A DNA stretch of 64,000 nucleotides from an uncultured Myxococcales bacterium (GTDB lineage Bacteria > Myxococcota_A > Polyangia > Nannocystales > Nannocystaceae): NCBI GenBank assembly GCA_902826865.1, contig CADEGN010000004.1, positions 830 through 64,829 on the forward strand, given 5' to 3'. Of this stretch, positions 8,868 through 32,209 are shown piece by piece; within the stretch, counting starts at the first letter, position 1, and every line of letters starts with the position of its first letter. Below the pieces are notes generated by a model. It worked only from the letters and a program-made list of their open reading frames with translations, had not been told where the DNA came from and did not search any database. A program made the translations under genes and the position numbers.

Positions 8868-10544
8868 TCATGGATTCGACAACAGCACGGCGACGTCGTC
8901 GTCGGACTGATTCGTTACGAGTAGGTCCGCGACTTCATCGCCGTTTACGTCGCCGGTGGCGAGCGCGCTGGGGGCGTTGCCGACGGTGTACGACTCCGCC
9001 GGGCTAAAACTACCCAGGCCGTTGCCGACCAGGACGTCAACCGCATCGTCTTCCGTGGCGACAACGACGAGGTCGAGATGGGTGTCGCCACTGACTTCAA
9101 CCGCCAGCACGACTGCCGGGCCGGCGCTCGTGGAAAACGGTACGCCTGGGCCGAACCCGCCGATGCCGTTGCCGAGGCCGATCGTCACCTGATCGAGGTC
9201 GCTGCTTGTCACGGCCACGTCGAGGTCGCCATCGCCATTGAAATCCGCCACCGCCACCGCCGAGGTCGTGCCACCCACCTCATAGTTCGTTGCGCTGCCG
9301 AACCCGCCCGAGCCGTTGCCGCCGCGCAGGCTGAGCGCCGAGCCGGCGAGGCTGGCGAGATCGAGGTTGCCGTCACCGGTGAAGTCGGCTGCGGCGACGG
9401 CAACGGGTCCGTTGCCCGCGACGATCGTCGTTTGGGTCGCAAACCCTCCCGCGGCGTTGCCGAGCAACAGGCTGAGGTCATCGCTGCCGTTGTTCGCGAT
9501 CACTAAATCGCGGAGCCCGTCTTCGTCGAAATCGCCCGTCGCGATGGCGCCTGGTTGGGTGCCGACGTCGAAGTTGGTAGCGGCTGCGAATGATCCGCCG
9601 CCGGTTCCTGCCAGGAGCCCAACGGATCCGCCTGCCTCAGCCACGATCACAAGATCGAGCACGGGCGACGTATCGTCGAAGTGACCGGCGAGCATCGCTG
9701 CCGGGTTGTTGCCGACCGCGTACAGCGTGTCGAGGCCGAACTCGCCGGCGCCGTCACCGAGTCGGACGGTGACCTCGTCGTCCCCGCCATTCGCCACCGC
9801 GAGATCGAGCGCGCCATCGTCGTCAAGGTCCGCGACAACGATCGCGCGCGGGCCGGCGCCCACGAGCACACTCGTGCCCATGACGTAGCAGACGTCCCCC
9901 GCATCGGGGCTGCCGTCGGCGCAACCCCCCGGGTCCCCGGTGTCGGTCCCAGAGCTGCTCGCGCCCGATGTTGACGCGTCTGCGGCTGTCGTCCCCGTTG
10001 CCTCGCCGCTGCTCGATGACGCTGCCGATCCGCCGCTGCTCGCCGCGGCCGTTGTACCCGTGTCACCCGTCGAGGAGCCGCCGCTTGTGCCCGTGCCGCC
10101 GATCGGCGCCCCGCCCTGGATGAGCCCGTATGCAAACGACAGCTCAGCATCGTGGCCGATCGCCTTTTGACCCTCGAGATCCAGGTCCGGCTCCGGAAGC
10201 GCGTCGTACTTCGGCCCGGTGTCCTTACCGACGCGCAGCTTCTCGATCTCGTAGTCGCCGACGTCGGTGGTGCCGAAAAAATAGGTGACGGTGGCGTCAG
10301 CCGCGAGCGGCATGTTCGGCTGAACCCGAAACGCCTTGCCGATCGTCGGCGTGTTGGGCTGGTCGGTAATGCTGACATCGATGGCACTCGCCAGTGCCCC
10401 GGCCGGGATAGAGATCGTCAGGATCCCGTCGGCCGAGGTGATACTGCCACCATCGGGTCCGATCACCTTGGTGGCGCCCGGGGTGCTGTCGATGATGTCG
10501 TCGTCTCCGCCTCCGCAGGCGACGGGGCACAGAGATAACAGCAT
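8868..10544 (-). CDS. FG-GAP/VCBS-repeat (integrin-alpha-like propeller) lipoprotein
   Basis: The internal ATG gives MLLSLCPVACGG (lipobox). A Ser/Gly/Thr linker is followed by repeated FG-GAP calcium-loop motifs (ADLDDDGALDLAVANGG, GDFDEDGLRDLVIANNG, ADFTGDGNLDL, ADFNGDGDLDVAV, GDVNGDEVADLLV). Confidence 0.8.
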   Translation of the reverse strand: MLLSLCPVACGGGDDDIIDSTPGATKVIGPDGGSITSADGILTISIPAGALASAIDVSITDQPNTPTIGKAFRVQPNMPLAADATVTYFFGTTDVGDYEIEKLRVGKDTGPKYDALPEPDLDLEGQKAIGHDAELSFAYGLIQGGAPIGGTGTSGGSSTGDTGTTAAASSGGSAASSSSGEATGTTAADASTSGASSSGTDTGDPGGCADGSPDAGDVCYVMGTSVLVGAGPRAIVVADLDDDGALDLAVANGGDDEVTVRLGDGAGEFGLDTLYAVGNNPAAMLAGHFDDTSPVLDLVIVAEAGGSVGLLAGTGGGSFAAATNFDVGTQPGAIATGDFDEDGLRDLVIANNGSDDLSLLLGNAAGGFATQTTIVAGNGPVAVAAADFTGDGNLDLASLAGSALSLRGGNGSGGFGSATNYEVGGTTSAVAVADFNGDGDLDVAVTSSDLDQVTIGLGNGIGGFGPGVPFSTSAGPAVVLAVEVSGDTHLDLVVVATEDDAVDVLVGNGLGSFSPAESYTVGNAPSALATGDVNGDEVADLLVTNQSDDDVAVLLSNP

Positions 10545-10606
10545 CGCTAAAGAACGACCGCGCACCGCATTACCGTAGCATGGGAGTCCGAGTCTGGCCG
10601 CGAGGA

Positions 10607-12052
10607 TCAATCGCCCGCGTATCGCCCTCGTATCTCGCCCTCGTATCGGGGGGGTACGAGTGGGCCGCCCCCCGGGTTCGGGTCGCGCGCGGAACCAGGC
10701 GGCTGCACATCAGGCGGGTGGCGTTGTGCCCCGGCTGTTGCCTCCGGCCCTTGGGCGCGATGCCACGCGCCGAGGGCGTTGCGGGCGAGATCCGGGCCGT
10801 CGGCGGCCGCTGCCCCCGTACGCGAGCGGCCGCGAATCGGCCGGGGCATCGCGTGTAGCAAGGGCAAGCCGACGGCAAAGATCGCGACGGTCGTCGTAAC
10901 GGCTGCGACCACCATCACCGTAATGGCGTCGCCACCCGCTACGCCCGCGCGGGCAGGTAGGGTCGCTAGCACCGCGGCCGCCATCCCTCGCGGCAACGAG
11001 ATCGTGACCACCTTGCGTTGGTCGTAGCTGTATCCGGATCCGCGCAGAGTTGCCCAAACCGACACGGCGCGGACGACGAAGCAGACAGCGCCGAAGAGCG
11101 CCCCAAACAGCAGCAGTGACCATGGCGGACCGAGCATCAAGCCCACGAACGTAAACACGAGGGCTTTGAACACGAAGGTGATCTGGCCGTGGACCGCCTC
11201 GAGCGCCGGATCGGTCGTGGTGCCGACATACACCTCCGCGACATCGAATCGTTTGGCCAGTGCCGGGGCATTGGCCAAGATGACCGCGAACACCAGCAGC
11301 GCAACCGCGGGACTTCCGCCCGCGACATCGACGATCGCATAGACCGCACACAGTGCGCCGATGGTCAGCGGATAAGTGATCGGTCGGCGGCCAAGACGTG
11401 CCGAGATCGGAACCCACGCGATCGCAAGGATCGCACCGAGAACGCAGGCGACGGCGAGGTCGACGAGCAACGACACAACCGCACCGTGATCGCTCGTGGC
11501 AGCGCCCGGCATCACACTGATCACCGCCACTGTCACAAGCACGCACAGGACGTCGGTAATCGCCGACTCCAGGTTCACCAGCTTGGCGACACTGTCGGCG
11601 ACACGTCCGAGACGCATGCTCGGCATTACGACGAGGGCGCTAGACCCGCCCAGTGTTGCTCCGAGCACGACGCCGTGGCCGAAGCTCCAGCCCTCGAACG
11701 CGCCCAAGGCGGCGAGCGCACCGCTCAGCAGTGCGATGGCCAGTGTTGTGGCCGTGAACCCCGCAACCGCCAAGAGTACGGCGCGCGGTCCTGTCTGGCG
11801 AAGATCGTCAAGCGCAAGTCGCCCCCCGGCATCGAACAGCACGACGACCAACGCGAGGCCGCCGACGTACGGGAGCACCGCACGCAGGACCCCGGGCTCG
11901 ATCGCGCCGGTCGCACCAAGGACGATTCCAAACACCACCAAGCCCACCACGTCGGGCACCCGTGTGCGCTCGAACAGCAGCTCTCCGATGGCGCCCACGA
12001 CGAGCACCCCGGCGAGCCCAAGTAGGAACGCCGCGACCGGATCCACGTTCAA
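10607..12052 (-). CDS. Cation:proton antiporter (Na+/H+ exchanger family)
   Basis: 481-aa polytopic membrane protein with an N-terminus typical of CPA antiporters (LLGLAGVLVVGAIGELLFERTRVPDVVGLVVFGIVLG). The non-ATG start (TTG 12052 or GTG 12046) overlaps the stop of the upstream peroxidase gene. Confidence 0.8.
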   Translation of the reverse strand: MNVDPVAAFLLGLAGVLVVGAIGELLFERTRVPDVVGLVVFGIVLGATGAIEPGVLRAVLPYVGGLALVVVLFDAGGRLALDDLRQTGPRAVLLAVAGFTATTLAIALLSGALAALGAFEGWSFGHGVVLGATLGGSSALVVMPSMRLGRVADSVAKLVNLESAITDVLCVLVTVAVISVMPGAATSDHGAVVSLLVDLAVACVLGAILAIAWVPISARLGRRPITYPLTIGALCAVYAIVDVAGGSPAVALLVFAVILANAPALAKRFDVAEVYVGTTTDPALEAVHGQITFVFKALVFTFVGLMLGPPWSLLLFGALFGAVCFVVRAVSVWATLRGSGYSYDQRKVVTISLPRGMAAAVLATLPARAGVAGGDAITVMVVAAVTTTVAIFAVGLPLLHAMPRPIRGRSRTGAAAADGPDLARNALGAWHRAQGPEATAGAQRHPPDVQPPGSARDPNPGGGPLVPPRYEGEIRGRYAGD

Positions 12053-13278
12053 CCCGGATCCGGCTTGGGTGTCTTGGGCCCAGAAGGCGGCAGCTCGGGT
12101 ACCGCGATTGCGTCCATTGGTGGCGTGCCAGTTAGCGAGCCGAGAAACGCGACGACAGCCGCCACCTCGCCATCGGCGAGCTTGCCGCGGGCCGCCTGGT
12201 GCTCGGCCATGAGCTGCACGATCGTCGCGAGGTCCGCGACCGAACCATCGTGGAGGTACGGGGCCGTCTCGGCCACGTTGCGCAAGCTCGGGACCTTGAA
12301 CACAAACCTATCTGCTGCGCTCTTTGTTACCTCAGCGCGACCTTCATCGGTGAGACCCGGCCAAGGCTTCACGGTGCCGAGCTTTTGGAACATGGTGCCA
12401 CCCACGGTGGCGCCGGTGTGGCATTGGGTGCAGCCCACGTCGAGGAACAGCTGCAGTCCGCGCAATTCCTCGGCTGATAGCGCGGTGAGGTCGCCACCCA
12501 TGAACGCGTCGAACTTCGCCGGCGTGATCAGTTGGCGTTCAAAGGCCGCGATGGCCTTGGCGACGTTGTCGTAGCTGATCGGCTTACGCTCGCCGGGAAA
12601 CGCCTTCGCGAACGCGTCCTCATAGCCGGGGATCGACTCGAGGGTGGTGAGTACGGCGGCTTCGTCGGGCATCGCCATCTCCACAGGATTAAGGATCGGG
12701 CCCTTGGCTTGGCTCTCCAGGTCTTCCGCGCGTCCGTCCCAGAACTGCACGAAGTGGAGGCCCGCGTTGTAAACGCTCGGGGTGTTGCGTCCACCGAGTT
12801 GGCCCTTGTGGCCCACGGAAGTCTTGGTGCGCGCGCCATCGCGGGTGTCCGCGTCGATCCCATAGTGGTCCAACTCGTGGCAGCTCGCGCACGAGATGTC
12901 GTGGTTCTTCGACAGGCGGGTTTCGAAAAAGAGTTGGCGACCTAGGGCGATCTTCTCGGGCGTGCTTGGGTTTGTTTCGCTGCGAATCTCACGGGGCAGG
13001 GCGCCGAGAATCGGCTTGGCCCGCTCAAGAAGCGCAGCCGGAGAGACAGGCGGCGCCCCGGGGGACGTCGCCGCGCCGGCTTTGTCGTCGAACCCCTCTC
13101 GAACCGAGCCCTCGGCGCGGCGCTTGTGGACTGCGACTTCGTCGCGTCGGTCGCACGCCGCCCCGGCAAAGGCGGCAACGGCGACGACGGACCAGACCAG
13201 TCGTTGTCCCGCGTTGAGCTCGGTTCGATGTGCCAAGGGCAGGGGGCGGGCGCTGCGCGAGATTCGATCGTCGGTCAT
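12049..13278 (-). CDS. Di-haem cytochrome c peroxidase (CCP/MauG family) lipoprotein
   Basis: Two CxxCH haem sites (CASCH, CTQCH) with the spacing and context of bacterial CCP (..RNTPSVYNAGL..FWDGRA..). The ATG at 13278 gives a TM/lipobox segment (VAVAAFAGAAC). Confidence 0.85.
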   Translation of the reverse strand: MTDDRISRSARPLPLAHRTELNAGQRLVWSVVAVAAFAGAACDRRDEVAVHKRRAEGSVREGFDDKAGAATSPGAPPVSPAALLERAKPILGALPREIRSETNPSTPEKIALGRQLFFETRLSKNHDISCASCHELDHYGIDADTRDGARTKTSVGHKGQLGGRNTPSVYNAGLHFVQFWDGRAEDLESQAKGPILNPVEMAMPDEAAVLTTLESIPGYEDAFAKAFPGERKPISYDNVAKAIAAFERQLITPAKFDAFMGGDLTALSAEELRGLQLFLDVGCTQCHTGATVGGTMFQKLGTVKPWPGLTDEGRAEVTKSAADRFVFKVPSLRNVAETAPYLHDGSVADLATIVQLMAEHQAARGKLADGEVAAVVAFLGSLTGTPPMDAIAVPELPPSGPKTPKPDPG

Positions 13279-13449
13279 GGAAGTCAATCCACCCGCCGGT
13301 GCGGGCGCCCCATCGTTTACCAGCCTCTGCAAGGAGCGCAAGTCTGCGACGCCGGTGCAGCGCCACCGCCGGTGCCCGAGCGCGCCCAGCTGCGCCGACG
13401 AAATAGACGGCTTGCTGCGCCGATGCGTCGCTGTCACGCTTGGGGGGCC

Positions 13450-13992
13450 ATGTCGAAGACCTCGTTCGCCGGTTTCCCCTCGATCGCGCTTGCCGGCTTC
13501 GCTTTGCTAGGATTCGCCGGCGGGTGTGGCAGCTCATCGAACGCGCCGACCGAGCGTCTGTGGGTTTCGGGCGTGCCAACCTCCACGAGGGCTGAAATCT
13601 CAGCGTTTGTGACCACGCGAACGGGTGAAGGAAAATTCCTCGGGGCCTTCTTCAGTGGCTCGCTGTTGCGCGGCAAGCACGACGTGTTTGAGTGGGAAGA
13701 CGACGGAGCGGATGCGGCGAAGCTCAAGTTCCTCCAAGATGGCAAGGTTCGCCGCATTCGCATCGAACCGTGCAAGCCGTCCACCGGATTTGATCGATGC
13801 ATCTTGGTGCACGGCGACCCCACCGGCAAGGTTCGCTACCAGTCGCGCAAGCGTTGGACGGTGAAGCGACCCGGCGGGAAGAAGGATCTCGCGACGCTGG
13901 TCCCGAGCGTGATGGCCGAGCTCGGTGAAGAGGATCGTGACCTGGCGGCATTCACCTCGGCCGACGTTGAGCCCATCGCGGACGCGCCGTGA
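13450..13992 (+). CDS. Hypothetical lipoprotein (first gene of the overlap-coupled trio)
   Basis: The ATG at 13450 gives MSKTSFAGFPSIALAGFALLGFAGGC (lipobox). No domain recognised. Its stop overlaps the next start (GTGA). Confidence 0.6.
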   Translation: MSKTSFAGFPSIALAGFALLGFAGGCGSSSNAPTERLWVSGVPTSTRAEISAFVTTRTGEGKFLGAFFSGSLLRGKHDVFEWEDDGADAAKLKFLQDGKVRRIRIEPCKPSTGFDRCILVHGDPTGKVRYQSRKRWTVKRPGGKKDLATLVPSVMAELGEEDRDLAAFTSADVEPIADAP

Positions 13993-15641
13993 GTGATGCC
14001 GCGACGGTCGACGAGCTGCTGCGGCGGCTCGTCGATCAGTTTGAGTCGCCCTACGATTTCCTGCGCGAGTTGGTCCAAAATTCCATGGACGCGGGCAGCG
14101 ACCGCGTCGATGTCGCCCTCTATGTCCACGAGACCACCGGCGGCGAAGTCGTGTTTGAGCTCGAGTGCACGGACGCCGGCGCCGGCATGGACGAGGCGAT
14201 CATCGACGGCGAGCTCACGCGCCTGTTCGCCAGCTCGAAGAGCGGCGATCGAACGATGGCGGGCGGGTTCGGTGTCGGCTTCGTCAGCGTGTTCGCGTGG
14301 GAGCCCCACGCTGTGCTGGTCCAGACGGGGCGCCAGGGGCAGGCCTGGGAGCTGCTCTTTCATGCCGATCGGACGTTCGAGAAGCACGCGCTAGCCGAAC
14401 CCTTCGAGGGGACGAGCGTCCGGTTGTTCCGCCTCGGGCGGCTCGAGCAGCGCCCTCAGATCGCGGCCGCAATCCGCGACAGCTTGTGGCGCTGGTGTCG
14501 CTACTGCGCCTGCGACATCGAGTTCACGGACGCGCATGTTGGCCGCGTTGAGCGCATCAAAGACGAATCGAACGGCACGGAGGATCCGCTCACTGCGGTT
14601 CACCAGGTCGGCGATACCACCGTGCGCGTGGCGTTCGGGATACCTCCCCATGTCGTGCTGCTGCGCCGGGGGCTCGTGCTGGCGGAGGGATCGCCCACCC
14701 AGCATCTTGCCCGCGTGGCTCCGGTTCTCAGCACGTCATTCGAGCACCTACGCGTGTGGGCGGACTCTTCCGCGTTGCGCACCGACATCGGCCGAGATCA
14801 CGTTATCGATGATGTGGGCCGTCGTGGGGTCGAGCAGATTGTCTCCGAGCTTGTGGTTGGATTGCGCGACGATCTCATCGCGCGGCTCGAGGGCATGGCG
14901 TCGGCCTCGGGACCCTGGACGGTCGAGGTTCACGCGAACTACGGCTATCTGCATGCCCACTTGGCGTGCGAACGCGACTCGATCGGCTCCGCCCTCGATA
15001 AGCGTGGTGTCTTGCGGCGGGCGATCGGTGGCGCAACGAGCGTGGCGGCGCTTGTGCGTCGTGCGAGTTGGGGTGTGGTGGCGACGGTGGTTCCGGCGCG
15101 CGCAGGCGAACCGCAGGTCGCCGTCGCTGATCGGGGGGGTGTTCCGGTACTCATCGCCGATCGCGAGGACGCAGGGGCGTGGCTTCGCGCCTGGCTGGAC
15201 ACGTTCGACGTCGAGTTGGTTGAGCTTGACGCCAATGTGCGCGCGGTGACGGCAGCGGCCGGCGATGGCGCAACCCTTGCTGGATTGGTGGCGGCGATCC
15301 TCGTGAAGGCTGGTGTCGCGAGCGAGGTCTGTGTCGGTTCGTTTGATGGTCCCGCCGATCAGGTGTGGGGCCTGCAGCTCTCGGCCGACCCGCCAAGCGT
15401 GGTCGTGGGGGTGCGTCGGTTTGCCGCCGATCAACGGGTGGTCGTCTGGCTGGACGCCCGCCATGTACTCGTGCGGGCGGCGATGATCGAATACACCGTG
15501 CGGCCGCTGGTAGCCGCCGCGACGCTGGCGTTTGCGGTTGTTGGCACGCTGCCGCGCGGCGCGATCGATCTCGACGATGTTGCCGATGCGGTCGACGAGC
15601 TCGCGGCTTCGGCGGCGTCGCGTCCCGCGGAGGGATCGTGA
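13989..15641 (+). CDS. Hsp90/sacsin-like GHKL (Bergerat-fold) ATPase with an unassigned C-terminal ~400 aa
   Basis: N box YDFLRELVQNSMDAG, G1 box TDAGAGMD, and G2/lid FASSKSGDRTMAGGFGVGFVSVF, ordered and spaced as in Hsp90 N-domains. The rest of the protein resembles nothing I can name. Confidence 0.75.
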   Translation: MSDAATVDELLRRLVDQFESPYDFLRELVQNSMDAGSDRVDVALYVHETTGGEVVFELECTDAGAGMDEAIIDGELTRLFASSKSGDRTMAGGFGVGFVSVFAWEPHAVLVQTGRQGQAWELLFHADRTFEKHALAEPFEGTSVRLFRLGRLEQRPQIAAAIRDSLWRWCRYCACDIEFTDAHVGRVERIKDESNGTEDPLTAVHQVGDTTVRVAFGIPPHVVLLRRGLVLAEGSPTQHLARVAPVLSTSFEHLRVWADSSALRTDIGRDHVIDDVGRRGVEQIVSELVVGLRDDLIARLEGMASASGPWTVEVHANYGYLHAHLACERDSIGSALDKRGVLRRAIGGATSVAALVRRASWGVVATVVPARAGEPQVAVADRGGVPVLIADREDAGAWLRAWLDTFDVELVELDANVRAVTAAAGDGATLAGLVAAILVKAGVASEVCVGSFDGPADQVWGLQLSADPPSVVVGVRRFAADQRVVVWLDARHVLVRAAMIEYTVRPLVAAATLAFAVVGTLPRGAIDLDDVADAVDELAASAASRPAEGS

Positions 15642-18600
15642 TGGACGATCGCGTGGCCGGGGTTGTGGCCGCACGTCGGCTGTCCCGTGGTCGCGCTGAT
15701 ACGCGGCGCTTCACCATCGAACGCGTCGAGGCTCGCCTACGCTTGCGCGATCGTCCGGGGTCCGACGCGCACGAATGGAGCCTTGTGCTCGTGCGTGGCC
15801 TGCTTGCCCTCGCGGATGCGGCCACGGTCACGCTGATTGCCCAACCGGCAGAGGCCGGCGGTGGACTTGTGCTCGAGATCGGCATCGATCCCAGCGTCCT
15901 TGTCGGCCTCAAGCTCGCCGATCTCCTGGACGCGGCGATAAATCCGGATCCTGGTCCTGGCAGCGGTAGCCTTGGGCATCGCCAAGAGCGCTTCGTCCGT
16001 CTGATCGGTCGCGCACTCAACGAAGCGCTCGCTGCCGATCCAGATGCGATTACCATCGTGATTCCAGACGCCGGGCGCCGAGTCGAGCGCGTGCCTGGCA
16101 GTTCCGCCGATGACCCCTACGCGGAGCGTCCTTACGCGGGGCACGGCCGCGCGGGTCAGATCCGCATCGAGATCAAAGGACGGGCGAGCAAAGCTCTGTT
16201 CGGGAGCGGCTGGCGCCCGGATCGTGTCGCCCGACAGTTGGTGCAGCGCTGGCGTGAGCGGGTCCCAGGGCTGGTCGATCGTGGTTCGAACGCGGTCGAT
16301 CTCCGCGCCGTCCCGCCCGGGCAGTTTGTTCGGCTTGGAGCCATTGCGCGTTGGTGGCCGCGCTCGGAGTCCGGCCCGCTGTTGCTGATGCGCGATGGGG
16401 TGCTCGTCCCGGGCGTGATGGAACGCGCCGTCGCCGAACGCGTCCCGGTGGGGCGCATGGCCGGGGTTGTCGAGGCGCCATTCGTTCATCTCGTCGTCGA
16501 CGAGACGGCGATCGTTCGCGATAGTGCCCTCGACGAACTCATCGCGTGGCTGCTCGATGCCCAGGCGCACGCGATTCGCTCGGGCGACGGGGATGACCAC
16601 ACCACAGCGATTACCGCGGTCGAGTTTCCCACCACGCTGGCGGCCGTCGAGACCGCCGCAGGCGTGGCTGTGCCGCTGGAGACCCTGCAACAGACCACGA
16701 AGCCCGGCCCCGAGTTCTACTACGCGTGGAGGCCCGACGCAGCCGCTGTGCCGAGCGCACTGCGCACGACAACGCTAATTTTGTGGCCAAGCGAGCGCGA
16801 GTTGCTCGAGCGGGCGATGCCGGATCTTCAGCTCGTACCGTTGCAGGTATTGCAGATGGCGAGGGGAGGGTGGTCCGATCTCACGGCGATCGAGCAGGGT
16901 AGCCTCCCGGCGCTTCCGTTGGGGGCGGCGAACTGGAACGCCTCCGATCGGGAGATCGCGATTGACCTGTCTGTGCTTGTTCATCGGCATCCCGTCGGGC
17001 AGCGGGGCGCCGCGATCCTGCTCGGGTTTGAGCGCCGGCTCGCCGAGGGTGACCCAAGCGAGGTGATCCCCGGCATCACCCTCGTCGGTCGCGTCGATCG
17101 CCTCTTCGCTGAGACGGCGGCGCGGGCGGTCACCCATCCCGAGTATCGCGCCAGCGCCATCGCAACGATGGTGGCCAAGGCACGCGCGCAGATGTCGGAA
17201 ATCGTGGCCTACGCCCTTCGTCACGACCAAGACGACGGCGGTCTGCGTGTGCCGGTGGTTCGCGCGGCGGTCGCCAGTTGCTCGGCCGCTACGCTCGGGC
17301 TCCGCTACGTTGTCAGCACGGCGGGCGTTCGCTTGGCGTGGGAGGACAGTCCGTTGACGCAGCTGGTGGTGGCGCAGACGCGTGATGGCGTGAAGCGGAC
17401 GCTGGGCGCTGCGTTGGTCCGCGCGCGTGACGTCGGGGGCATTGTCATCGGAGACCCGACCCATCGCTGGCATGTGCTCGAGCAAGATGAAGAGGTTTGG
17501 CTGCCGACCGCCGTCGGTCGCGACTTGTTGGCCCGGGTGCTGCCAGCCGCAGCGCTGTGGACAATGCCGTGTGTACCCGCGAGTCAGATCCACGTGGCGC
17601 CGGCGGCAGAGCAGCGCCGCCTGCTACTCGATCGCGAGGAGGTCGCACGCTCGTTGCTGCGGGTTGCCAGCGACCCGCGCGCGCGTTCGCTGCTTCTCGG
17701 TCACCTGCTCGTTGCGCGGGCGCTTGGCGAGTCGACACAGGGCCTCGCCGACATCGCGTTGCTGTCGATCTTCGATCCGCGGGCCGTTACGGCCCAGCGG
17801 CTGTGGTCGTCGACCATGCGCGCGAACGACCGGCGTCGATTCGCTCTTGCACCGTGGTCGACGGCGACGCGCGATCTTACCGGTTGCGTCGTCGAGGCTT
17901 CGCCGGGTGAAGCGGCGCTCTTGCACGAAGTCATGGGGCTCGGTGTCGATGTCGAAGAAGGGGGCGAGCCGCTGACGTCGCCCACGAATGCGGCCGCTTC
18001 ACCTGTCGGAGTGCGGACGCCGAGTCCGCTCTTGTCGTTGCCGATCGCTGACGCGCTTGCGGTCGGTGCGATCCACTTGTTTGCCGAGGAGGATCGGCCC
18101 GCGATTGAGCTGTGGGCGGCCGGATTGCGGGTCGGCGAGATGTCGCTGCCGAGCCCTCTTGCGGCGATTGGCGGGCGGCTGTGGCTCTCCGATGCCGGGG
18201 TGCGTGCAGGCCACGCGGGAATCGAAAACATGCTGCTCACCCATGGCCGCGTGTTTGTTCGCACCGCCCTGGCCAGCGTCGCGCTGACGCCTCCCGGAAC
18301 CGCGCGGCGCCGGACGTTGCGTCGCTTCATCGATCACGTTCGCGCGGCGGTCGCTGCGGGGGGCGATCGTTTTCGCCTCGCGCCGATCGTCGCCGAGCGA
18401 CGTGCTCCGGCCGTGCTCGGCAACGATCACGCGAAGGCGGTGCGACTTCCTCAGCTGCGGCGGTTGTGGCTGTCCACGCTGCTGCGGCACGCTCTCGGCC
18501 GCCCGCACAAGATCGACAGCGCATGGCTATCGTGGACCGCGGCGCAGCTCCGCGATCCGTCGGCGCCGATCTGGGAGATCGAGCTGGGATCACGCCATCG

Positions 18601-18766
18601 TTGGATCAAGCGCGCCAGTGACGACGAGGCGGGGCTCGATCGCGTCGGTTTGGCGGCCGTGCTCGTTGCAGCCTCCGTGTTGGCGCAAGCGCGCGTGGAG
18701 GGGCCGGCGCTCCCGCTCGCGCTGCTCCGGATTCTCGCCGCGCTACACGTCGCGCCCCGCAGCTAG
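15641..18766 (+). CDS. Large (1042 aa) protein of unknown function, translationally coupled to the GHKL ATPase
   Basis: The ATG at 15641 (or GTG at 15638) overlaps the ATPase stop. Coding-type GC3 runs throughout. I can recognise no catalytic or binding motif. There is a hydrophobic segment near the C-terminus (GLAAVLVAASVLAQA). Confidence 0.65.
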   Translation: MDDRVAGVVAARRLSRGRADTRRFTIERVEARLRLRDRPGSDAHEWSLVLVRGLLALADAATVTLIAQPAEAGGGLVLEIGIDPSVLVGLKLADLLDAAINPDPGPGSGSLGHRQERFVRLIGRALNEALAADPDAITIVIPDAGRRVERVPGSSADDPYAERPYAGHGRAGQIRIEIKGRASKALFGSGWRPDRVARQLVQRWRERVPGLVDRGSNAVDLRAVPPGQFVRLGAIARWWPRSESGPLLLMRDGVLVPGVMERAVAERVPVGRMAGVVEAPFVHLVVDETAIVRDSALDELIAWLLDAQAHAIRSGDGDDHTTAITAVEFPTTLAAVETAAGVAVPLETLQQTTKPGPEFYYAWRPDAAAVPSALRTTTLILWPSERELLERAMPDLQLVPLQVLQMARGGWSDLTAIEQGSLPALPLGAANWNASDREIAIDLSVLVHRHPVGQRGAAILLGFERRLAEGDPSEVIPGITLVGRVDRLFAETAARAVTHPEYRASAIATMVAKARAQMSEIVAYALRHDQDDGGLRVPVVRAAVASCSAATLGLRYVVSTAGVRLAWEDSPLTQLVVAQTRDGVKRTLGAALVRARDVGGIVIGDPTHRWHVLEQDEEVWLPTAVGRDLLARVLPAAALWTMPCVPASQIHVAPAAEQRRLLLDREEVARSLLRVASDPRARSLLLGHLLVARALGESTQGLADIALLSIFDPRAVTAQRLWSSTMRANDRRRFALAPWSTATRDLTGCVVEASPGEAALLHEVMGLGVDVEEGGEPLTSPTNAAASPVGVRTPSPLLSLPIADALAVGAIHLFAEEDRPAIELWAAGLRVGEMSLPSPLAAIGGRLWLSDAGVRAGHAGIENMLLTHGRVFVRTALASVALTPPGTARRRTLRRFIDHVRAAVAAGGDRFRLAPIVAERRAPAVLGNDHAKAVRLPQLRRLWLSTLLRHALGRPHKIDSAWLSWTAAQLRDPSAPIWEIELGSRHRWIKRASDDEAGLDRVGLAAVLVAASVLAQARVEGPALPLALLRILAALHVAPRS

Positions 18767-18855: not shown

Positions 18856-19080
18856 TTACAGCACGACGGCGCCGGGGCGATGGATCGAGACGTCGGCAGC
18901 GTGCAGCAAGTACTTGTGAGGATCGAGGCCACGCAGCTTGGCCGTCTCGAGGGTCCGGGAAACTCCGTCCGCGCCCGATTCCACAGGTTTGGGGTCCGCG
19001 TAGGATCCAAGAAACGGACACGTTCCCCGCCTGCCTCGGTGCGGGAGCGGACGGCAGGACCCTGCCGATCGCGAGTCGCC
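18856..19080 (-). mobile_element. Remnant of the C-terminus of an IS66-family transposase
   Basis: Minus-strand translation gives ..CRPLPHRGRRGTCPFLGSYADPKPVESGADGVSRTLETAKLRGLDPHKYLLHAADVSIHRPGAVVL*. This parallels the IS66 TnpC tail (..ALRPIALGRKNWLFAGS..GG..A..YSLI.TAKLNGLDP..YL..VL.RI..HP..). There is no start and no upstream transposase body. Confidence 0.45.
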
Positions 19081-19117: not shown

Positions 19118-20182
19118 CTACCGCGGCAGCCGCGTGGCGACCCACAGGGTGGAGCTGCCGGAGGACGCGTCGCCTTCGAAGCGGGTCAGGTACAGCTGGC
19201 ACAGGTCTTCAGAGATCCAGTCGGGGGCTTCGGCGAGATCCGTCGACAGCTCGTCGACGCGCCGGATCCCCGCGAAGGCACCGCGCGGCGTATCGCGAGA
19301 CGCCGTGTAGATGTCCTGCCCGGCGCCGCCGAGGTCGGTGCGCTCCGACGCCCACCAAAGCTGCAGCCCGTCGGCCGACAGCACCGGGTTGGAGTCGTCC
19401 GACGGCGAATTGATCTCGGTCAACGGCGACAGGAGCCCGGTCCAACCGGGGATCGATCCCTGACTGAGCTGCTCGTCGTCGAGCTCGTCGGGGAGCGCCG
19501 GGTCGCGCCGGTGCCAGTACAGCGTCTGCCCGTCGGCCGACAGGTGCGGCGAGAACACCGCGCCGGAGGGGAACAGGTCCTGTGGGGCCGTCCACGGATC
19601 GTCTGCCGAGGTGCGCGTCGCGATCGCGGTGTAGCTGGCCAGGTCGTAGTAGTGGATCGCGAGGGTCGAGCCGTCGGCGCTCAGCGCCACGTCGAAGCCG
19701 TTGGGCAGCCCGCCATAGCCGTCGCCGAATACGACCGTCGGATTGGCGAATGCGTCAGCGGGGCTCGCGCGCGTCGCCATCATGATCACGGCCCGAGCTC
19801 CGTCGCGTGCGGCGAAGTAGATCGTGCGACGGTCGGACGCCAGGGACGCGGTGCTCTCGAACTGGGATATCCCGAGCCCGGGGACGGGGACCGGGTCGTC
19901 GAACGTCGCGGCGGGGTCGCACGGCATCGCCGGCTCGCCGATGCCGGTGCCGCTGCCGGTCGTATCCGTCTCGTCGCCCGTCTCGTCACCCGTCTCGTCA
20001 CCCGTCTGGCCGCCCGACCCGCCCGGCCCGCCGGTCGAAGACCCCGCATCGTCGCTCGCCTCCGCGGACGGATTGCCCGTGCCGCTTGTCGCCGTTTCAG
20101 CCGCGTCGTCACCCTCGGCGTCGGCGCAGCCGACGAGCACGCAAAAGATCAGCACCCCCGACCCACCCGCCGTGTACGACAT
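19118..20182 (-). CDS. Lipoprotein with TolB-like (PD40/WD40-like) beta-propeller repeats
   Basis: Lipobox MSYTAGGSGVLIFCVLVGC, an acidic Gly/Ser/Thr linker with (GDET)x3, then PD40-like repeats (SDRRTIYFAA, LSADGSTLAI, LSADGQTLYW, LSADGLQLWWASER). Confidence 0.75.
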   Translation of the reverse strand: MSYTAGGSGVLIFCVLVGCADAEGDDAAETATSGTGNPSAEASDDAGSSTGGPGGSGGQTGDETGDETGDETDTTGSGTGIGEPAMPCDPAATFDDPVPVPGLGISQFESTASLASDRRTIYFAARDGARAVIMMATRASPADAFANPTVVFGDGYGGLPNGFDVALSADGSTLAIHYYDLASYTAIATRTSADDPWTAPQDLFPSGAVFSPHLSADGQTLYWHRRDPALPDELDDEQLSQGSIPGWTGLLSPLTEINSPSDDSNPVLSADGLQLWWASERTDLGGAGQDIYTASRDTPRGAFAGIRRVDELSTDLAEAPDWISEDLCQLYLTRFEGDASSGSSTLWVATRLPR

Positions 20183-21519: not shown

Positions 21520-23001
21520 TCATGTGCCGCAGAACGTTCGGTAGCCCCACTGCTCGTCGCCAGGCGGGACAGCGAGGTCGGCCTCGGCGGGCTGGTCGTC
21601 GTACGGCCGGGCAAGAACGCGTCGCAACCGCTGCAGCGGGCCGAGATCCCCCGCCGTGGCCGCGGCGATCATCGCTTCGATCTGATGATTGCGCGGGATG
21701 AAAGCCGGGTTGACCGCACGCATCCGCGCAGCGGTTGCTTCGCCGCCGCCGGGCTGCCCGGCTCCGTCCTCCTCGGCGAGTCGAGCGCGCCAGCGCGGGA
21801 TCCACTCCCGCGCCGCGGAGCTGTCCGCGAATCCCGCCAGCCACGCCTCAGTCGACCCGCCCGCCGCCACCTCAGCGAGTCGACGGAAGGTCAAGGTGTA
21901 GTCCGCGCGGTTCGCCGCCATCGCTGCCAACAGCTCGGCGAGCAAGCCCTCGTCGCCAGGGCGCACCGCGGTGAAACCGAGCTTGCGCCGCATTACGACC
22001 ATGTATGCGTCGTCGAAACGCGAACCCCACGTTTCAATCCGTCGAGTGAGGATCTCGATCGCACGCGAGTCACCGTCTTCAACCAAGGGAATGAGCGTTT
22101 CGGCCAAGCGCGCGAGGTTCCACTGTGCGATGCGCGGCTGATTGGCAAACGCGTAGCGGCCGTGGTGGTCGATCGAACTGAACGAGCGCCGCGGATCGTA
22201 CGCGTCGAGAAATGCACAGGGGCCGTAGTCGATCGTCTCGCCGGAGATCGAGGTGTTGTCGGTGTTCATTACGCCGTGCACAAACCCGACGCCCAGCCAG
22301 CTTGCAACCAGCTCGGCTTGACGACCGACGACCGCGTCGAGCAGCGCAAGCGCGGCCCCCTCGGAGCGATCGACCGTGGGGTAGTGGCGTGCCAGTGCGT
22401 ATTCGACCAAACCGCGCAGCCCCTCAACGTCGGCGCGCGCCGCGAGAAATTGCAGCGTGCCAATCCGCAGATGGCTCGCCGCCACTCGCGTGAGCACCGC
22501 GCCGGGCAGCGGCTGATCGCGAAGTACCGACGCGCCAGTTGCAACGGCCGCGAGTGCGCGTGTGGTCGGCACACCCAACGCCACCATCGCTTCGCTCATC
22601 ACAAACTCGCGCAGCACCGGCCCGATGGCGGCGCGACCGTCTCCGCCGCGCGAAAATGGTGTTCGCCCAGGCCCTTTGAGTTGCACGTCGTATCGTCGGC
22701 CATCGCCGCCGACCACTTCCCCGAGGAGAATCGCCCGGCCGTCGCCGAGCTGCGGAACGAAGTTGCCGAACTGGTGTCCTGCGTATGCCAACGCGATCGG
22801 CTCGGACCCCGCAGGGATGCGATTGCCGGCGAGAATCTCGACAAGTTCCACCGCAGCGAGCTCGTCGGGTGCGAGTCCAAGCACCGCGGCGAGCTCCTCG
22901 TTGAACGCCAGGATCCTGGGCGATGGCACCGGCGTCGGATCGACACGTGCCCACAGCCGGTCGGGGAGCCGCGCGTACGTCGTGTCGAAGGCAAAAGGCA
23001 T
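21520..23001 (-). CDS. selO: Protein adenylyltransferase SelO (YdiU/UPF0061)
   Basis: 493 aa with ..YAGHQFGNFVPQLGDGRAILLGEV..YDVQLKGPGRTPFSRGGDGRA..REFVMSEAMVALGVPTTRALA..HLRIGT.., diagnostic of SelO. Confidence 0.9.
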   Translation of the reverse strand: MPFAFDTTYARLPDRLWARVDPTPVPSPRILAFNEELAAVLGLAPDELAAVELVEILAGNRIPAGSEPIALAYAGHQFGNFVPQLGDGRAILLGEVVGGDGRRYDVQLKGPGRTPFSRGGDGRAAIGPVLREFVMSEAMVALGVPTTRALAAVATGASVLRDQPLPGAVLTRVAASHLRIGTLQFLAARADVEGLRGLVEYALARHYPTVDRSEGAALALLDAVVGRQAELVASWLGVGFVHGVMNTDNTSISGETIDYGPCAFLDAYDPRRSFSSIDHHGRYAFANQPRIAQWNLARLAETLIPLVEDGDSRAIEILTRRIETWGSRFDDAYMVVMRRKLGFTAVRPGDEGLLAELLAAMAANRADYTLTFRRLAEVAAGGSTEAWLAGFADSSAAREWIPRWRARLAEEDGAGQPGGGEATAARMRAVNPAFIPRNHQIEAMIAAATAGDLGPLQRLRRVLARPYDDQPAEADLAVPPGDEQWGYRTFCGT

Positions 23002-23999: not shown

Positions 24000-24172
24000 C
24001 CGTTGAGCCATCGTGGCGGGGGTTTGAGATCGCCCAGGCACTCGATCCGAGTGCGGCGGCCTCCGCGGGGGGCGACGCATCGTTGGGGCGCCGTAGACGC
24101 GGATGAGTCATCGCACGAAGTCGCGACCTGTTTGGCGTGCGACCCGAGCGCGTCCCGAGGCCCAACCGAAGC

Positions 24173-25387
24173 ATGAAGGTGACGTCGTGGTCTCGTCGCT
24201 CGCGCGGGTGGGACGCCGTGCTTGTCGTCGCCGCCCATCTGGCAACCGGGTGCCTGCCGCCATTTCCGGGTTCGGGCGAGCTGACGGGGCCCTGCAACGA
24301 CGGCAAATGTCACGGCGAGGGCACGTGCTCATCGGGCGCTTGCATCGACTCGGAAACCGCCGGCGAGGCCAGCGATGACACGCCGGGGCCGAGCGGCGGC
24401 GACGGGGCGGATGGACCCGGATCGGTGAGTGACGGACCCGACGGCGGGACCGGATCGGTGAGTGACGGACCCGACGGCGGGATCGATGCCGGCGAAAGCG
24501 GAGGGCAGGGTGACACGCTCGGCTCGTGTGATCCTGCCGCTGACGCCTGTGACGGCAGCTCTGTCGATCTCGCAACCGCGTTCGGGATCAATTGTCCGGG
24601 CGGAGCACAGATGAACGTCACGCCCCAGGGCAGCCCGCTGGCCCTGGGCGTGCGCACAACCCTTGGTGAGACCGGCGAGTGGTCGCCGCGCGAGGGTAAC
24701 TATTTCGTCGTGCTCGGCAGCGGGCGTATCGCCGATCTCGACGCGCCCGCACCTCCGATGGACGATAGCGCGTCTCCGACCCACTGCAACGACGATCTCG
24801 GCGACTTCGACCCGGAGACAATGCTGCCCAGCCCGCTGCGGAACGCGGACGTGTCAGGTGACTGCGCGAGTGACCCCAGCTTGGTGGGGACCGGGGACTG
24901 TTCGAACACGCTCGCGTCGTCGCTCGGCCTAGAAGCCCACGTCTTTGACTACACCGAGCTCCGCGTCGCGGGCGTTGTGCCCGCCCAGGCGGCCGGATTC
25001 TCCTACGACTTTGCGTTCTTCTCGGCCGAGTATCCCTATTATGTCGATGGCCAATTTAGCGACATGTTCGTAGCGTGGCTCGAGTCGGAGAGCTGGACCG
25101 GGAACGTGTCGTTCGACGACGCGCATCAGCCTGTGTCTACGGCGATGGAGTTCTTCGAGCTCCGCGACGACGAGGGCACGTTGCCCGAGTTCGCCGGTAC
25201 GTGTATGCGTGGCCATGGCGGAACCCCGTGGCTCACGACAACCGCGGCCGTGGTGCCAGGTGAGGAGATTACGGTCGTTTTTGCGGTCTTCGATGTGAGC
25301 GATTCGATCGTCGACAGCTACGTCTTTCTGGATCACTTCCGCTGGAGTTGCGAGGCGGGTAGCCACCCGACGACCGTGCGCGGGTGA
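24173..25387 (+). CDS. Choice-of-anchor-L-domain lipoprotein
   Basis: The ATG at 24173 gives MKVTSW..VVAAHLATGC (lipobox). A Cys-rich and Gly/Asp linker follows. The C-terminal domain has FSYDFAFFSAEYPYYVDGQFSDMFVAWL...VVFAVFDVSDSIVDSYVFLD, typical of choice-of-anchor L. Confidence 0.7.
   Translation: MKVTSWSRRSRGWDAVLVVAAHLATGCLPPFPGSGELTGPCNDGKCHGEGTCSSGACIDSETAGEASDDTPGPSGGDGADGPGSVSDGPDGGTGSVSDGPDGGIDAGESGGQGDTLGSCDPAADACDGSSVDLATAFGINCPGGAQMNVTPQGSPLALGVRTTLGETGEWSPREGNYFVVLGSGRIADLDAPAPPMDDSASPTHCNDDLGDFDPETMLPSPLRNADVSGDCASDPSLVGTGDCSNTLASSLGLEAHVFDYTELRVAGVVPAQAAGFSYDFAFFSAEYPYYVDGQFSDMFVAWLESESWTGNVSFDDAHQPVSTAMEFFELRDDEGTLPEFAGTCMRGHGGTPWLTTTAAVVPGEEITVVFAVFDVSDSIVDSYVFLDHFRWSCEAGSHPTTVRG
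24419..24484 (+). repeat. 33-bp tandem duplication (GSVSDGPDGGx, two units) in the linker
   Basis: ggatcggtgagtgacggacccgacggcggga occurs twice in tandem. Confidence 0.7.
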
Positions 25388-25424: not shown

Positions 25425-25517
25425 CTAGCCAAACAGAGCGGTGTAGTCGAGGACGCAACGCCCGTCGAAGTCCTCGGCGTCGCGGAGCTTGGCGGCGGCA
25501 ACGAACTGCGACCTCAT
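25425..25517 (-). CDS. Possible 30-codon small ORF, ATGA-coupled to the FG-GAP gene stop
   Basis: Reads MRSQFVAAAKLRDAEDFDGRCVLDYTALFG*. 25 of 29 third positions are G/C. The ATG (25517-25515) overlaps the TGA (25516-25514). It is below the ORF-track length cutoff. Confidence 0.3.
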   Translation of the reverse strand: MRSQFVAAAKLRDAEDFDGRCVLDYTALFG

Positions 25518-27178
25518 CCCGCGGGTTTCGGTTGGCAGGCTTGACCGCCTTCGATCTGCGCATTGACACGGAAGGTGTTCAGGTTCAGCCAGTGCCTGGG
25601 TTCGACCTGTGGGATCGTTCCGTCCTCACGCACGTTGGTGACGTGATAGGTGTGCTGATTCCAGATTCGTCGCGCCTGAATCCAGCGCGAGTCCGCGTCA
25701 CCGAGCACCTGCACCATCGGTGTGCCCGGCCCGGGGTTGCCATTGGACACGATGACGATCTCCGCGGACCCGTCGTTGTCGACGTCGGCAACCACGGGAT
25801 ACTCGATGAGAGTCCCGCTGTCGCGTGGGGCCTGAAACAACACCTCGCCGGCCGCTCCGAATGCGAAGAGGGTCGTTTCGTCGCCATAGATCGCGTCGGG
25901 TATACCGTCTCCCAGGAAGTCGAAAGCGGTCGACGAGGCAAGCCCAGAAACGTCGAGAACCGGCGACTGCCAGAGGGTCGCGGCATCGCTGCCGCGGTAC
26001 ACGCCAAACCACGCGGTCGAGCTGACGCCGATGTCCGCAAGGCCATCGGCGTCGCCGTCGAAGATCGCCGCCGGCCGCCGCCAGTCGGTGTCACCGGTCG
26101 GATTGACTGCGGCGTACTTCGTCGTCCCATCATGCTCGAGCACCGTGAGCCCAAAGGGACCGACGGTCATCGAGGTGACGAGCACTTCGGGGAGCCCGTC
26201 ATCATCCAGGTCGGCCACCTGCGGAGGCCCGGGCTCCACGTCGTCGCGCCTATAGTACTCACTGCCATCATGGTGGTATGCGCTCGAGCCGAGCACGAGT
26301 TCCAGTGTGCCGTCCGAGTCGAGATCGGACAGCGCCGAAGTTGCATACTGTGGCGGGAGCACTGGCGCGGAAAACACCAGCGATCCCAGGTGATCGACCA
26401 CCGTAGCCCCGAAAGCGATCTCGACGTCGCCGTCTGCATCCATGTCACCGAGAGCGACGGCGAACTCGCGGACGAACTCCACGTCGGATATCCACTTGAG
26501 TGTGCCATCGTGCTCCCAGACGGTGACATGGGCCTCGAAGCCGTCGAGCGTGGCCCCGACGATCTCCATGAGACCATCGCCATCGATATCGCCAATCGCC
26601 GGGGTGATCGTCGTTCTGACCGGTTCTGCGATGGAGTAGTGCACCGATCCAGTGGCACCATCGAGGACAACGATGTGGCCAGGCTGGTACCAAAGCGGGC
26701 TTCCCACCACGACGATGTCCGGAGTGTCGCAAAGGTCGATGCTGCCGTCCGCGTTGTCGTCGGTGAAGTTGCCGACCAGGGGCGTCGTGATGCTGTTTGG
26801 TTCGCCAGCAAGCCCGTCGAAACTCCATTGCACCTCCGGCGCGAACGCCCGAGGTGGTGCGGCCGTGCGGCAGGGCGGGACCCCGTCGCCGTCGCGCCCC
26901 GGTACGCAACTCGGTCTCGTCGGCCCGACCGGATTGGAGACGTCGGCCGACGAGAGATCGAACTTCACGTTGCCGTCGGTGATCGTGGAGTCTGCGTTTC
27001 CGATCGACGTACCGTCGACCGGAAATGCCTCGGTCGAGGCCGGCCCCCCGGTGGAGCCCGATCCACCCGTGCCGGCCGCGCTGTCGCCGGCTTCGTCGCC
27101 CTGCTGAAAAGGAGAGGGGTTGGCGTTCGAACACGCCAGCGTGGTTGAGATCAGGCACAACCTAGTCGATGATCGCAT
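25514..27178 (-). CDS. FG-GAP/VCBS-repeat lipoprotein
   Basis: Lipobox MRSSTRLCLISTTLAC, with seven FG-GAP-type loops (GDIDGDGLMEIVG, GDMDADGDVEIAFG, SDLDSDGTLELVLG, ADLDDDGLPEVLV, FDGDADGLADIGV, FDFLGDGIPDAIYG, ADVDNDGSAEIVIV). Confidence 0.8.
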   Translation of the reverse strand: MRSSTRLCLISTTLACSNANPSPFQQGDEAGDSAAGTGGSGSTGGPASTEAFPVDGTSIGNADSTITDGNVKFDLSSADVSNPVGPTRPSCVPGRDGDGVPPCRTAAPPRAFAPEVQWSFDGLAGEPNSITTPLVGNFTDDNADGSIDLCDTPDIVVVGSPLWYQPGHIVVLDGATGSVHYSIAEPVRTTITPAIGDIDGDGLMEIVGATLDGFEAHVTVWEHDGTLKWISDVEFVREFAVALGDMDADGDVEIAFGATVVDHLGSLVFSAPVLPPQYATSALSDLDSDGTLELVLGSSAYHHDGSEYYRRDDVEPGPPQVADLDDDGLPEVLVTSMTVGPFGLTVLEHDGTTKYAAVNPTGDTDWRRPAAIFDGDADGLADIGVSSTAWFGVYRGSDAATLWQSPVLDVSGLASSTAFDFLGDGIPDAIYGDETTLFAFGAAGEVLFQAPRDSGTLIEYPVVADVDNDGSAEIVIVSNGNPGPGTPMVQVLGDADSRWIQARRIWNQHTYHVTNVREDGTIPQVEPRHWLNLNTFRVNAQIEGGQACQPKPAG

Positions 27179-32196: not shown

Positions 32197-32209
32197 CTCG
32201 CGTTATGGG

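Follow-up and report, generated by a model that had tools for sequence, protein, structure and literature searches.

The 64,000-nucleotide stretch of DNA analysed here (the window), part of contig CADEGN010000004.1 from an uncultured member of the Myxococcales placed in the Nannocystaceae, encodes a lipoprotein (A), an Hsp90-like ATPase (B) and a large protein (C) in three overlapping open reading frames (ORFs) on the forward strand. B and C form a conserved gene pair whose products, as modelled, share the Hsp90 fold, with the ATP site intact in B and degenerate in C, which also carries an additional C-terminal region of ~490 residues. We put at roughly 55% the probability that the two proteins constitute an Hsp90-type clamp in which the ATPase activity comes from B, and C, an associated partner that is dead and enlarged, presents a client surface. 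Among the named sources the B–C pair is limited essentially to the Nannocystaceae, whilst A is probably a clade-specific operon neighbour and not a part of the proposed machine. An earlier note on the same DNA, made from the sequence alone, had singled out the three genes as the candidate for an undescribed ATP-driven machine; the finding of the B–C pair is real and is now more interpretable than in that reading, although the pair is not a categorically new machine.

Folds and ATP sites of proteins B and C

B is assigned by its sequence to the GHKL/Bergerat-fold ATPases, since it scores above the gathering cut-offs of Pfam HATPase_c_3 (1e-7, 32.5 bits against a cut-off of 25) and HATPase_c (27.7 bits against 26.4) and its N-box, G1 and G2 motifs are intact, which bears out the previous identification of a GHKL ATPase with an Hsp90/sacsin-type site. 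All invariance counts for B are based on an alignment of 44 homologues (A2), in which the ATP-site residues E27, N31, D34, D62, G64, G66, K84 and G92/93/95/97 are invariant (44/44). Because these residues are invariant the site is predicted to be live, and B should be catalytically competent, binding and hydrolysing ATP.

The sequence profile libraries (Pfam, NCBIfam and PADLOC) recognise only the N-domain of B and none of the rest. The AlphaFold2 (AF2) model of B, with a mean predicted local distance difference test score (pLDDT) of 89 and a predicted template modelling score (pTM) of 0.81, was compared with PDB chains using Foldseek, and TRAP1 was the best match (E 4.5e-19, probability 1.00), with whole chains aligned over 630-690 columns. 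Other full-length chains matching the model were Hsc82, Hsp90-beta, GRP94 and HtpG, and all 50 of the matches listed were Hsp90-family chains, with template modelling (TM) scores of only 0.4-0.5, as is expected if the inter-domain angles differ. The lid (residues 85-93) has a pLDDT below 50, as expected of a mobile lid. A profile search of PDB sequences gave E. coli HtpG (2.7e-8) in two stretches, one being the N-domain and the other HtpG 345-590, i.e. the end of the middle domain and the C-domain, which aligns to positions 290-519 of the B query profile. The contention of the earlier note that the last ~400 amino acids of B do not resemble the Hsp90 middle or C domains is overturned by the alignment of the whole model to full-length TRAP1, Hsp90 and HtpG and by this second HtpG stretch. 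At the level of the modelled fold, B is a compact but complete Hsp90 paralogue with a three-domain N-M-C architecture, and the model ends in two terminal helices (H506-519 and H528-544).

A loop in the middle domain of B (ADSSALRTDIGRD) contains R269 and D270, both invariant in 44/44 homologues. By motif, the loop (as VWADSSALRTDIGRDHVIDD) was aligned to 'VDSxDLPLNxSRExLQ', the catalytic-Arg loop of Hsp90 (R380 in yeast, R336 in HtpG), and on this motif alignment the R269 loop is likely to be its equivalent. The paralogue B2, described below, reads 'LEHTLSRD/ETV' at the same position. More than 290 homologues of B were found; those with names come nearly all from the Nannocystaceae, and some are automatically annotated 'HtpG' or 'Heat shock protein 90'.

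C has no Pfam, NCBIfam or PADLOC match, nor did Pfam match any of the 21 members of its family (21/21) or seven members of a distant C-like family. Profile searches of PDB sequences using the alignment of the C family (A1), and using a merged alignment of the C family and the distant C-like family (A4), returned nothing meaningful, the best match being MEK1 (E 1.1). C is thus an orphan by sequence, as was previously thought, but by fold it is not. In the AF2 model of C (pLDDT 77) the order of helices and strands across residues 1-545 mirrors that of B 1-544 element for element, a comparison made between two models. Foldseek again placed TRAP1 first for the C model (E 2.7e-7); of the 50 matches listed, those ranked 1-47 and 50 were Hsp90-family chains, and those ranked 48-49 were GyrB/TopoII ATPase regions (~1e-4).

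An exhaustive hidden Markov model search of 1.84 billion cluster representatives yielded 89 relatives of C and, in addition, the distant C-like family, made up of proteins of 1130-1260 amino acids which are homologous to C over most of their length (hhalign 99%, E 2.4e-18) and whose N-termini ('…DPHFYILELVQAAVANG…') contain, by eye, a degenerate Hsp90 N-box. When A4 was compared with the B family by hhalign, C 41-427 was collinear with B 19-438 (87%, E 3.9e-6, 360 columns). The match rose to this value only once the distant C-like family had been merged in: the C family alone gave a probability of 1.3% against the B family in the first hhalign comparison, which is not significant, and slices of A1 cut by domain were equally weak.

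In the alignment with B, the residues that bind nucleotide in Hsp90-type sites are lost throughout the C superfamily. The position of the Mg-binding Asn is occupied by A, G, S or I (Asn in 0/32) and that of the adenine-binding Asp by T, V, Y, W or I (Asp in 0/32), the G2 box changes from GGFGVG in B to RLIGRA in C, and the position of B R269 carries E, H or D. As 32/32 lack the Mg-binding Asn, the adenine-binding Asp and the glycine loop, C is predicted to be a pseudo-ATPase; its model and alignments mark it as a diverged paralogue of the Hsp90 type whose ATP site is dead and in which only the fold has been retained.

Beyond the B-like module, residues 920-966 of the C extension are disordered in the model, and a faint sign of internal repetition links residues ~564-640 to the alpha/beta module at 326-399 (hhalign E 1.7e-3, probability 16%). 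The 'hydrophobic segment' that had been described at the end of C is modelled instead as an amphipathic helix-turn-helix, and the windows of highest hydropathy in C fall within folded domains; a transmembrane anchor at the C-terminus was rejected as unconvincing in view of the hydropathy profile and the model. A Tat-like 'TRRF' near the N-terminus was likewise rejected, as the residues that follow are highly charged and the motif lies within a conserved helix. Three shorter proteins (P0222, P0225 and P0227; 424-643 amino acids) match the C-family profile over its N-terminal third or less. They have an N-box-like 'Y.LELVQAAV…', less clear in P0222 and P0225, followed by at least one hydrophobic, transmembrane-like segment, so membrane-anchored relatives of the pseudo-Hsp90 head may exist.

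Coupling and linkage of the B and C genes

The three overlapping ORFs were confirmed from the sequence (Table 1), with C comprising 1041 amino acids in our translation where 1042 had been counted before. The stop codon of B (TGA, 15639-15641) shares its A with the start codon of C (ATG, 15641-15643); an in-frame GTG lies just ahead of this overlap at 15638, and a strong Shine-Dalgarno sequence (GGAGGGA, 15629-15635) lies 5 nucleotides (nt) upstream. The same 4-nt overlap was seen in Enhygromyxa salina and at two loci of the second pair (L031 and L033). At the other junction, the start of B (GTG, 13989-13991) overlaps the stop of A (TGA, 13990-13992). The GC content of the A-B-C region (0.65-0.69) matches that of the flanks, and a scan for promoters and terminators found nothing above shuffled expectation.

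Linkage was assessed in a scan seeded with C, using one genome per GTDB species, which gave 26 distinct loci (numbered with an L), all from Nannocystaceae or from unclassified Myxococcales/Polyangia metagenome-assembled genomes (MAGs), and including Nannocystis, Enhygromyxa salina and Plesiocystis pacifica. Five loci carried no information on linkage: L015, L016 and L018 have too short a stretch of upstream DNA, and L028 and L030 duplicate L003 and L002 respectively, which belong to the loci seeded with B. B lay upstream of C on the same strand in 19 of the 21 informative loci (tblastn). A C homologue was also found downstream of B, on the same strand, at all six of the loci seeded with B, which had been picked solely for length of contig. 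The view that B and C belong to one unit is thus borne out by the stop/start overlap, the Shine-Dalgarno sequence and linkage kept across genomes; the conserved linkage holds for B and C but does not extend to A.

The distant C-like proteins belong to a second pair with the same gene order. At each of the three loci examined (3/3) the distant C-like protein (C2, 1198-1236 amino acids) is directly preceded by a HATPase_c_3/sacsin-like protein (B2, 576-596 amino acids) that is 35% identical to B. C2 retains the N-box Glu ('LELIQAAVANG') and has lost the Asn and the Asp. One contig, JACKDU010000001.1, bears both pair 1 (L012) and pair 2 (L031), and the B–C pair was therefore duplicated, or was retained, as a unit; the 64-kb window contains pair 1 only. 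Searches of plasmids and phages gave no homologue of either protein. Identity among C homologues is 30-45%, compared with 45-58% among B homologues, so C evolves much faster than B.

Mechanism, alternatives and known systems

In the mechanism that we propose, B and C would be made in fixed proportion from overlapping cistrons, C having been derived from the same three-domain scaffold as B by loss of the ATP site and of the middle-domain Arg position and by gain of ~490 residues. The two proteins would bind each other via their N- and C-terminal dimerisation surfaces, the simplest arrangement being an asymmetric heterodimer or hetero-oligomer of the Hsp90 type. The ATP cycle of B would drive opening and closing, and C would provide a large and rapidly evolving platform to which a lineage-specific client or target binds. 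Physical association of B with C, its stoichiometry, the geometry of a heterodimer and chaperone activity are what we infer for the pair. A stronger version, offered only tentatively, is that of an Hsp90 heterodimer whose asymmetry is obligate: one protomer would be live, and the other, permanently dead, would carry the ~490-residue client platform. The pair would then have been duplicated together at least once within the Nannocystaceae for different lineage-specific clients, such as the patatin-like phospholipase encoded after C in most relatives.

Several results weigh against a B–C clamp of the Hsp90 type. The pTM of the C model is 0.43, and the extension (residues 551-1041) has no profile match, leaving the second half of C without a family assignment. 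B fails the NCBIfam models for HtpG (PRK05218; 18.5 bits against a cut-off of 371) and for 'HSP90 family protein' (PRK14083; 25.8 bits against 455), and being so far under these cut-offs it is no HtpG orthologue but a member of a separate, deeply diverged paralogue family. It also fails the models for the sacsin N-terminal ATP-binding domain (NF047352; 6.9e-11, 42.5 bits against 50) and for Pfam SACS (PF25794; 24.9 bits against 32.8). At two loci (L017, 4346-5884; L019, 2331-3818) a membrane cytochrome c of ~500 amino acids lies upstream of C in place of B, and at several Nannocystis-type loci B and C stand 1-3.5 kb apart, with small or opposite-strand genes in between; strict adjacency of the two genes is therefore not obligatory.

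As to these genes themselves, the membrane cytochrome c proteins contain Cytochrome_CBB3/Cytochrom_C domains, and in both MAGs a patatin gene follows ~1 kb downstream. The inserts between B and C (L001 9922-11137, L003 9943-10666 and L034 7659-9119) consist of small genes without Pfam matches (118-243 amino acids) or of one opposite-strand gene of 486 amino acids; those of L001 have no homologue at the other loci, which points to recent insertion.

Canonical Hsp90s are homodimers, as are all those characterised, and B, which has complete terminal helices of its own, may pair with itself. B alone would then be a homodimeric Hsp90-like chaperone, with C a dedicated client or regulator, or an independent co-expressed scaffold, and not a protomer of a mixed dimer; the occurrence of C without an adjacent B at L017 and L019 and its much faster evolution fit such an arrangement. 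We nevertheless consider it doubtful, as C keeps the whole Hsp90-like scaffold, including the N-domain and the C-terminal helices that dimerise in Hsp90, which would be odd for a mere client, both genes were duplicated and diverged as a pair, and the stop/start overlap argues for stoichiometric production. The recurrence of the B-then-C order in the anciently diverged second pair, at unrelated genomic locations, makes it improbable that the genes are neighbours by inherited synteny alone and have no functional interplay. Both genes are indeed confined to one family with broadly conserved gene order, and some genomes tolerate intervening genes, but the stop/start overlap is maintained in distant members, and B and C are mutually homologous, as fits subfunctionalised partners.

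A GHKL-type conflict or anti-phage system of the Tiamat/MORC kind, with B as sensor or ATPase, C as a large effector and the patatin as a membrane-attacking effector, is very improbable. The matches of B to TmtA in PADLOC, the best of which has an E of 5.1e-5, are confined to the generic GHKL N-domain, ~80-95 out of the 1300-1650 positions of the profiles. C has no PADLOC match, and no nuclease, protease, TIR, SIR2 or pore domain could be recognised in it. In Nannocystis, Enhygromyxa and Plesiocystis the pair sits in chromosomal regions of conserved synteny, beside housekeeping genes, its GC content is not atypical, and no plasmid or phage copies were found. The weak TmtA matches themselves, a patatin gene directly downstream of C at nine loci, the IS66 relic adjoining C in the window and the rapid divergence of C are what such a system would have in its favour; the Enhygromyxa loci and the second pair, however, lack the patatin gene, which in the window lies 13.4 kb off. 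That A, B and C together make up one three-part, envelope-associated, ATP-driven machine we regard as the most improbable of the readings. The A-B stop/start overlap in the window speaks for it, as does the placing of the A stop within a few bases of the B start at L005-L009, which fits overlap or near-abutment (from tblastn boundaries and ORF ends), and the three genes are co-oriented at 14 distinct loci besides the window. A is nevertheless missing from pair 2 and from every Enhygromyxa and Plesiocystis locus, it co-occurs exactly with a divergently transcribed gene for a periplasmic CCP_MauG protein, and it has a lipoprotein signal and the conserved Cys pairs typical of exported proteins, whilst B and C have no signal peptide. 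The reading of the trio as one machine in the earlier note is abandoned on these grounds, and the B–C clamp is preferred.

Amongst known systems, the closest in fold to the B–C pair is Hsp90 (HtpG/TRAP1). B resembles it in its N/M/C fold architecture, N-box, G1, SxKSG lid and G2 and in having an invariant Arg-Asp loop where, judged by motif, the catalytic Arg is expected, and C shares the fold; B, however, has ~75-170 fewer amino acids, and its identity to the Hsp90s of solved structure is just 12-16%. The usual view of bacterial HtpG is of a homodimer that needs no partner, with few clients known and no co-chaperones dedicated to it. To our knowledge no degenerate, dead partner has been described for Hsp90, and we know of no Hsp90 with a dedicated, catalytically dead paralogue of twice its size encoded alongside it.

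At the level of sequence the nearest relative is sacsin, whose N-terminal ATP-binding domain is the best domain-level match of B, with Pfam SACS in addition, both below threshold. Sacsin has several Hsp90-like modules of N plus middle domains, of ~1000 amino acids and some with doubtful ATP binding (PMC9880540, PMC3629688), within a single eukaryotic polypeptide of 4579 amino acids that also contains UBL, DnaJ and HEPN domains (PMC3710099). All three of these domains are absent from the A-B-C locus, where the B and C modules are, in contrast, separate genes. Degenerate GHKL partners are represented by MLH1-PMS1 of MutL-alpha (PMC12733681) and by meiotic TOPOVIBL and Rec102/Rec104 (PMC11347134; bioRxiv 10.1101/2020.02.21.960211), in which, as proposed for C, a protomer or domain with lost or weakened ATP binding is kept as a structural partner; they differ in belonging to another GHKL branch and in their DNA-directed functions. 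B matched the MutL, TopoVI-B and GyrB models over the N-domain only (11-23 bits against cut-offs of 180-937), and its matches to MutL and TopoVI-B cover ~60-85 N-terminal residues with an E of 2.7e-5 or weaker. The likeness to Tiamat TmtA is a weak similarity of the B N-domain to positions 72-149 of a 1486-position model, TmtA being, unlike the B–C pair, a single protein of 1300-1650 amino acids; the locus has no mobile or defence-island context. B has no full-length match, and A and C no match at all, among the PADLOC defence-system proteins. Chen et al. (2006) mention long 'HSP90-like' archaeal and bacterial proteins without the family marker residues, and no paired arrangement (PMC1525184). 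We found no description of the B–C system in the literature on bacterial Hsp90/sacsin-like pairs or degenerate partners. The earlier statement that the genes fit no described system thus stands in so far as none of the profile libraries and papers searched covers the pair, but both proteins are now assigned to the Hsp90 fold; the C-terminal half of the ATPase and C match a characterised family structurally, at the level of fold, and not a characterised system.

A fold is now assigned to a family of proteins of more than 1000 amino acids for which Pfam, NCBIfam and the PDB sequences gave no match, and the automatic 'HtpG' labels on some B homologues are corrected. The role of protomer asymmetry in the Hsp90 cycle is still debated, and an operon for a live and a dead Hsp90-like protein, if that is what B and C are, would be a natural experiment in enforced asymmetry, family-wide and duplicated as a pair. 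Were the live/dead heterodimer obligate, the asymmetric cycle of one ATP at a time that has been proposed for TRAP1/Hsp90 would here be hard-wired for the first time, and this would be the first bacterial Hsp90 to have a dedicated partner. If the pair is only a diverged chaperone and its client, the outcome would be a modest family annotation. The system would be tractable, as Nannocystis and Enhygromyxa strains can be cultivated.

Lipoprotein A and the flanking genes

The N-terminus of A (MSKTSFAGFPSIALAGFALLGFAGG-C) forms a signal peptide with a lipobox Cys at its end (FAGGC), and A is predicted to be an exported lipoprotein. The lipobox is relaxed, with Ala and not Leu/Val/Ile at the -3 position; in an alignment of 13 sequences (A and 12 homologues) the lipobox Cys is present in 13/13, two further Cys are conserved and the tail is acidic. 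A has no Pfam, NCBIfam or PADLOC match. It is confined to a Nannocystis-like clade, and the gene for the CCP_MauG di-haem cytochrome c peroxidase was found by tblastn at exactly the loci that have A, one-to-one (window 12049-13992, L001, L005-L010, L012, L013, L023-L025, L034 and L035). We set A apart from B and C because it is clade-restricted, co-occurs exactly with CCP_MauG and is exported. Their one-to-one occurrence suggests that A may serve CCP_MauG in the periplasm as a partner or substrate, and A more likely works with this peroxidase than with B and C.

Table 1. Features of the A-B-C locus and its surroundings, with positions in the window unless a locus is named.
Feature	Position	Strand	Basis or remark
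CCP_MauG di-haem cytochrome c peroxidase, divergent from A	12049-13437	-	Pfam 1e-54
A, lipoprotein, 180 aa (amino acids)	13450-13992	+	ORF call
B, Hsp90-like ATPase, 550 aa	13989-15641	+	ORF call, Pfam, AF2 model, Foldseek
B N-domain (residues 1-175), Bergerat ATP site: N-box LRELVQNSMDAG, G1 TDAGAGMD, lid SSKSGD, G2 GGFGVGF	13989-14513	+	
B middle domain (residues ~176-340), with loop VWADSSALRTDIGRDHVIDD	14514-15008	+	
B C-terminal alpha/beta module and terminal helices (residues 341-550), putative dimerisation region	15009-15641	+	HtpG profile stretch, Foldseek
B-C coupling site (Shine-Dalgarno sequence and stop/start overlap)	15629-15643	+	read directly from sequence
C, predicted Hsp90-like pseudo-ATPase with C-terminal extension, 1041 aa	15641-18766	+	ORF call, AF2 model, Foldseek
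C residues 1-550, B-like module: degenerate GHKL N-domain, middle-type loop, alpha/beta module	15641-17290	+	
C residues 551-1041, extension of ~490 aa: alpha/beta and beta-rich modules, amphipathic helix-turn-helix at end	17291-18766	+	model
IS66 transposase C-terminus relic, …LETAKLRGLDPHKYLL…	ORF 18856-18984 (relic ~18901-18951)	-	PF13817, sub-threshold
PD40-repeat protein	19118-20182	-	
SelO	21520-23001	-	
Gene X	24137-25387		synteny comparison (tblastn, tblastx)
FG-GAP protein	25514-27178	-	
Hybrid histidine kinase-response regulator	27469-29775	-	
S41 peptidase	30418-32196	+	
Patatin-like phospholipase	32147-32956	+	Pfam PF01734 7e-23; displaced ~13.4 kb from C
Second pair, B2-C2	L031 5214-10711; L032 5188-10645; L033 5250-10597		

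Synteny with the relatives breaks directly after C, and the IS66_C relic lies at the breakpoint. In the relatives L001, L005-L009, L023, L034 and L035 a patatin-like phospholipase gene follows ~10-260 nt after C, and at L006-L009 the patatin gene is followed in turn by the gene designated X in Table 1. The IS66 remnant previously placed directly downstream of the three genes is there as a small minus-strand relic, but it comprises just ~17 residues within a 42-amino-acid ORF, matching Pfam IS66_C (PF13817) below threshold (E 6.9e-4, 20.2 bits against a cut-off of 30), and the larger downstream ORFs gave no further IS66 or transposase signal. On the minus strand upstream of A, a gene for a Na+/H+ exchanger (10607-12052) overlaps the stop of the CCP_MauG gene and is followed by one for a second FG-GAP repeat protein (8868-10610), so that the two FG-GAP genes flank the region.

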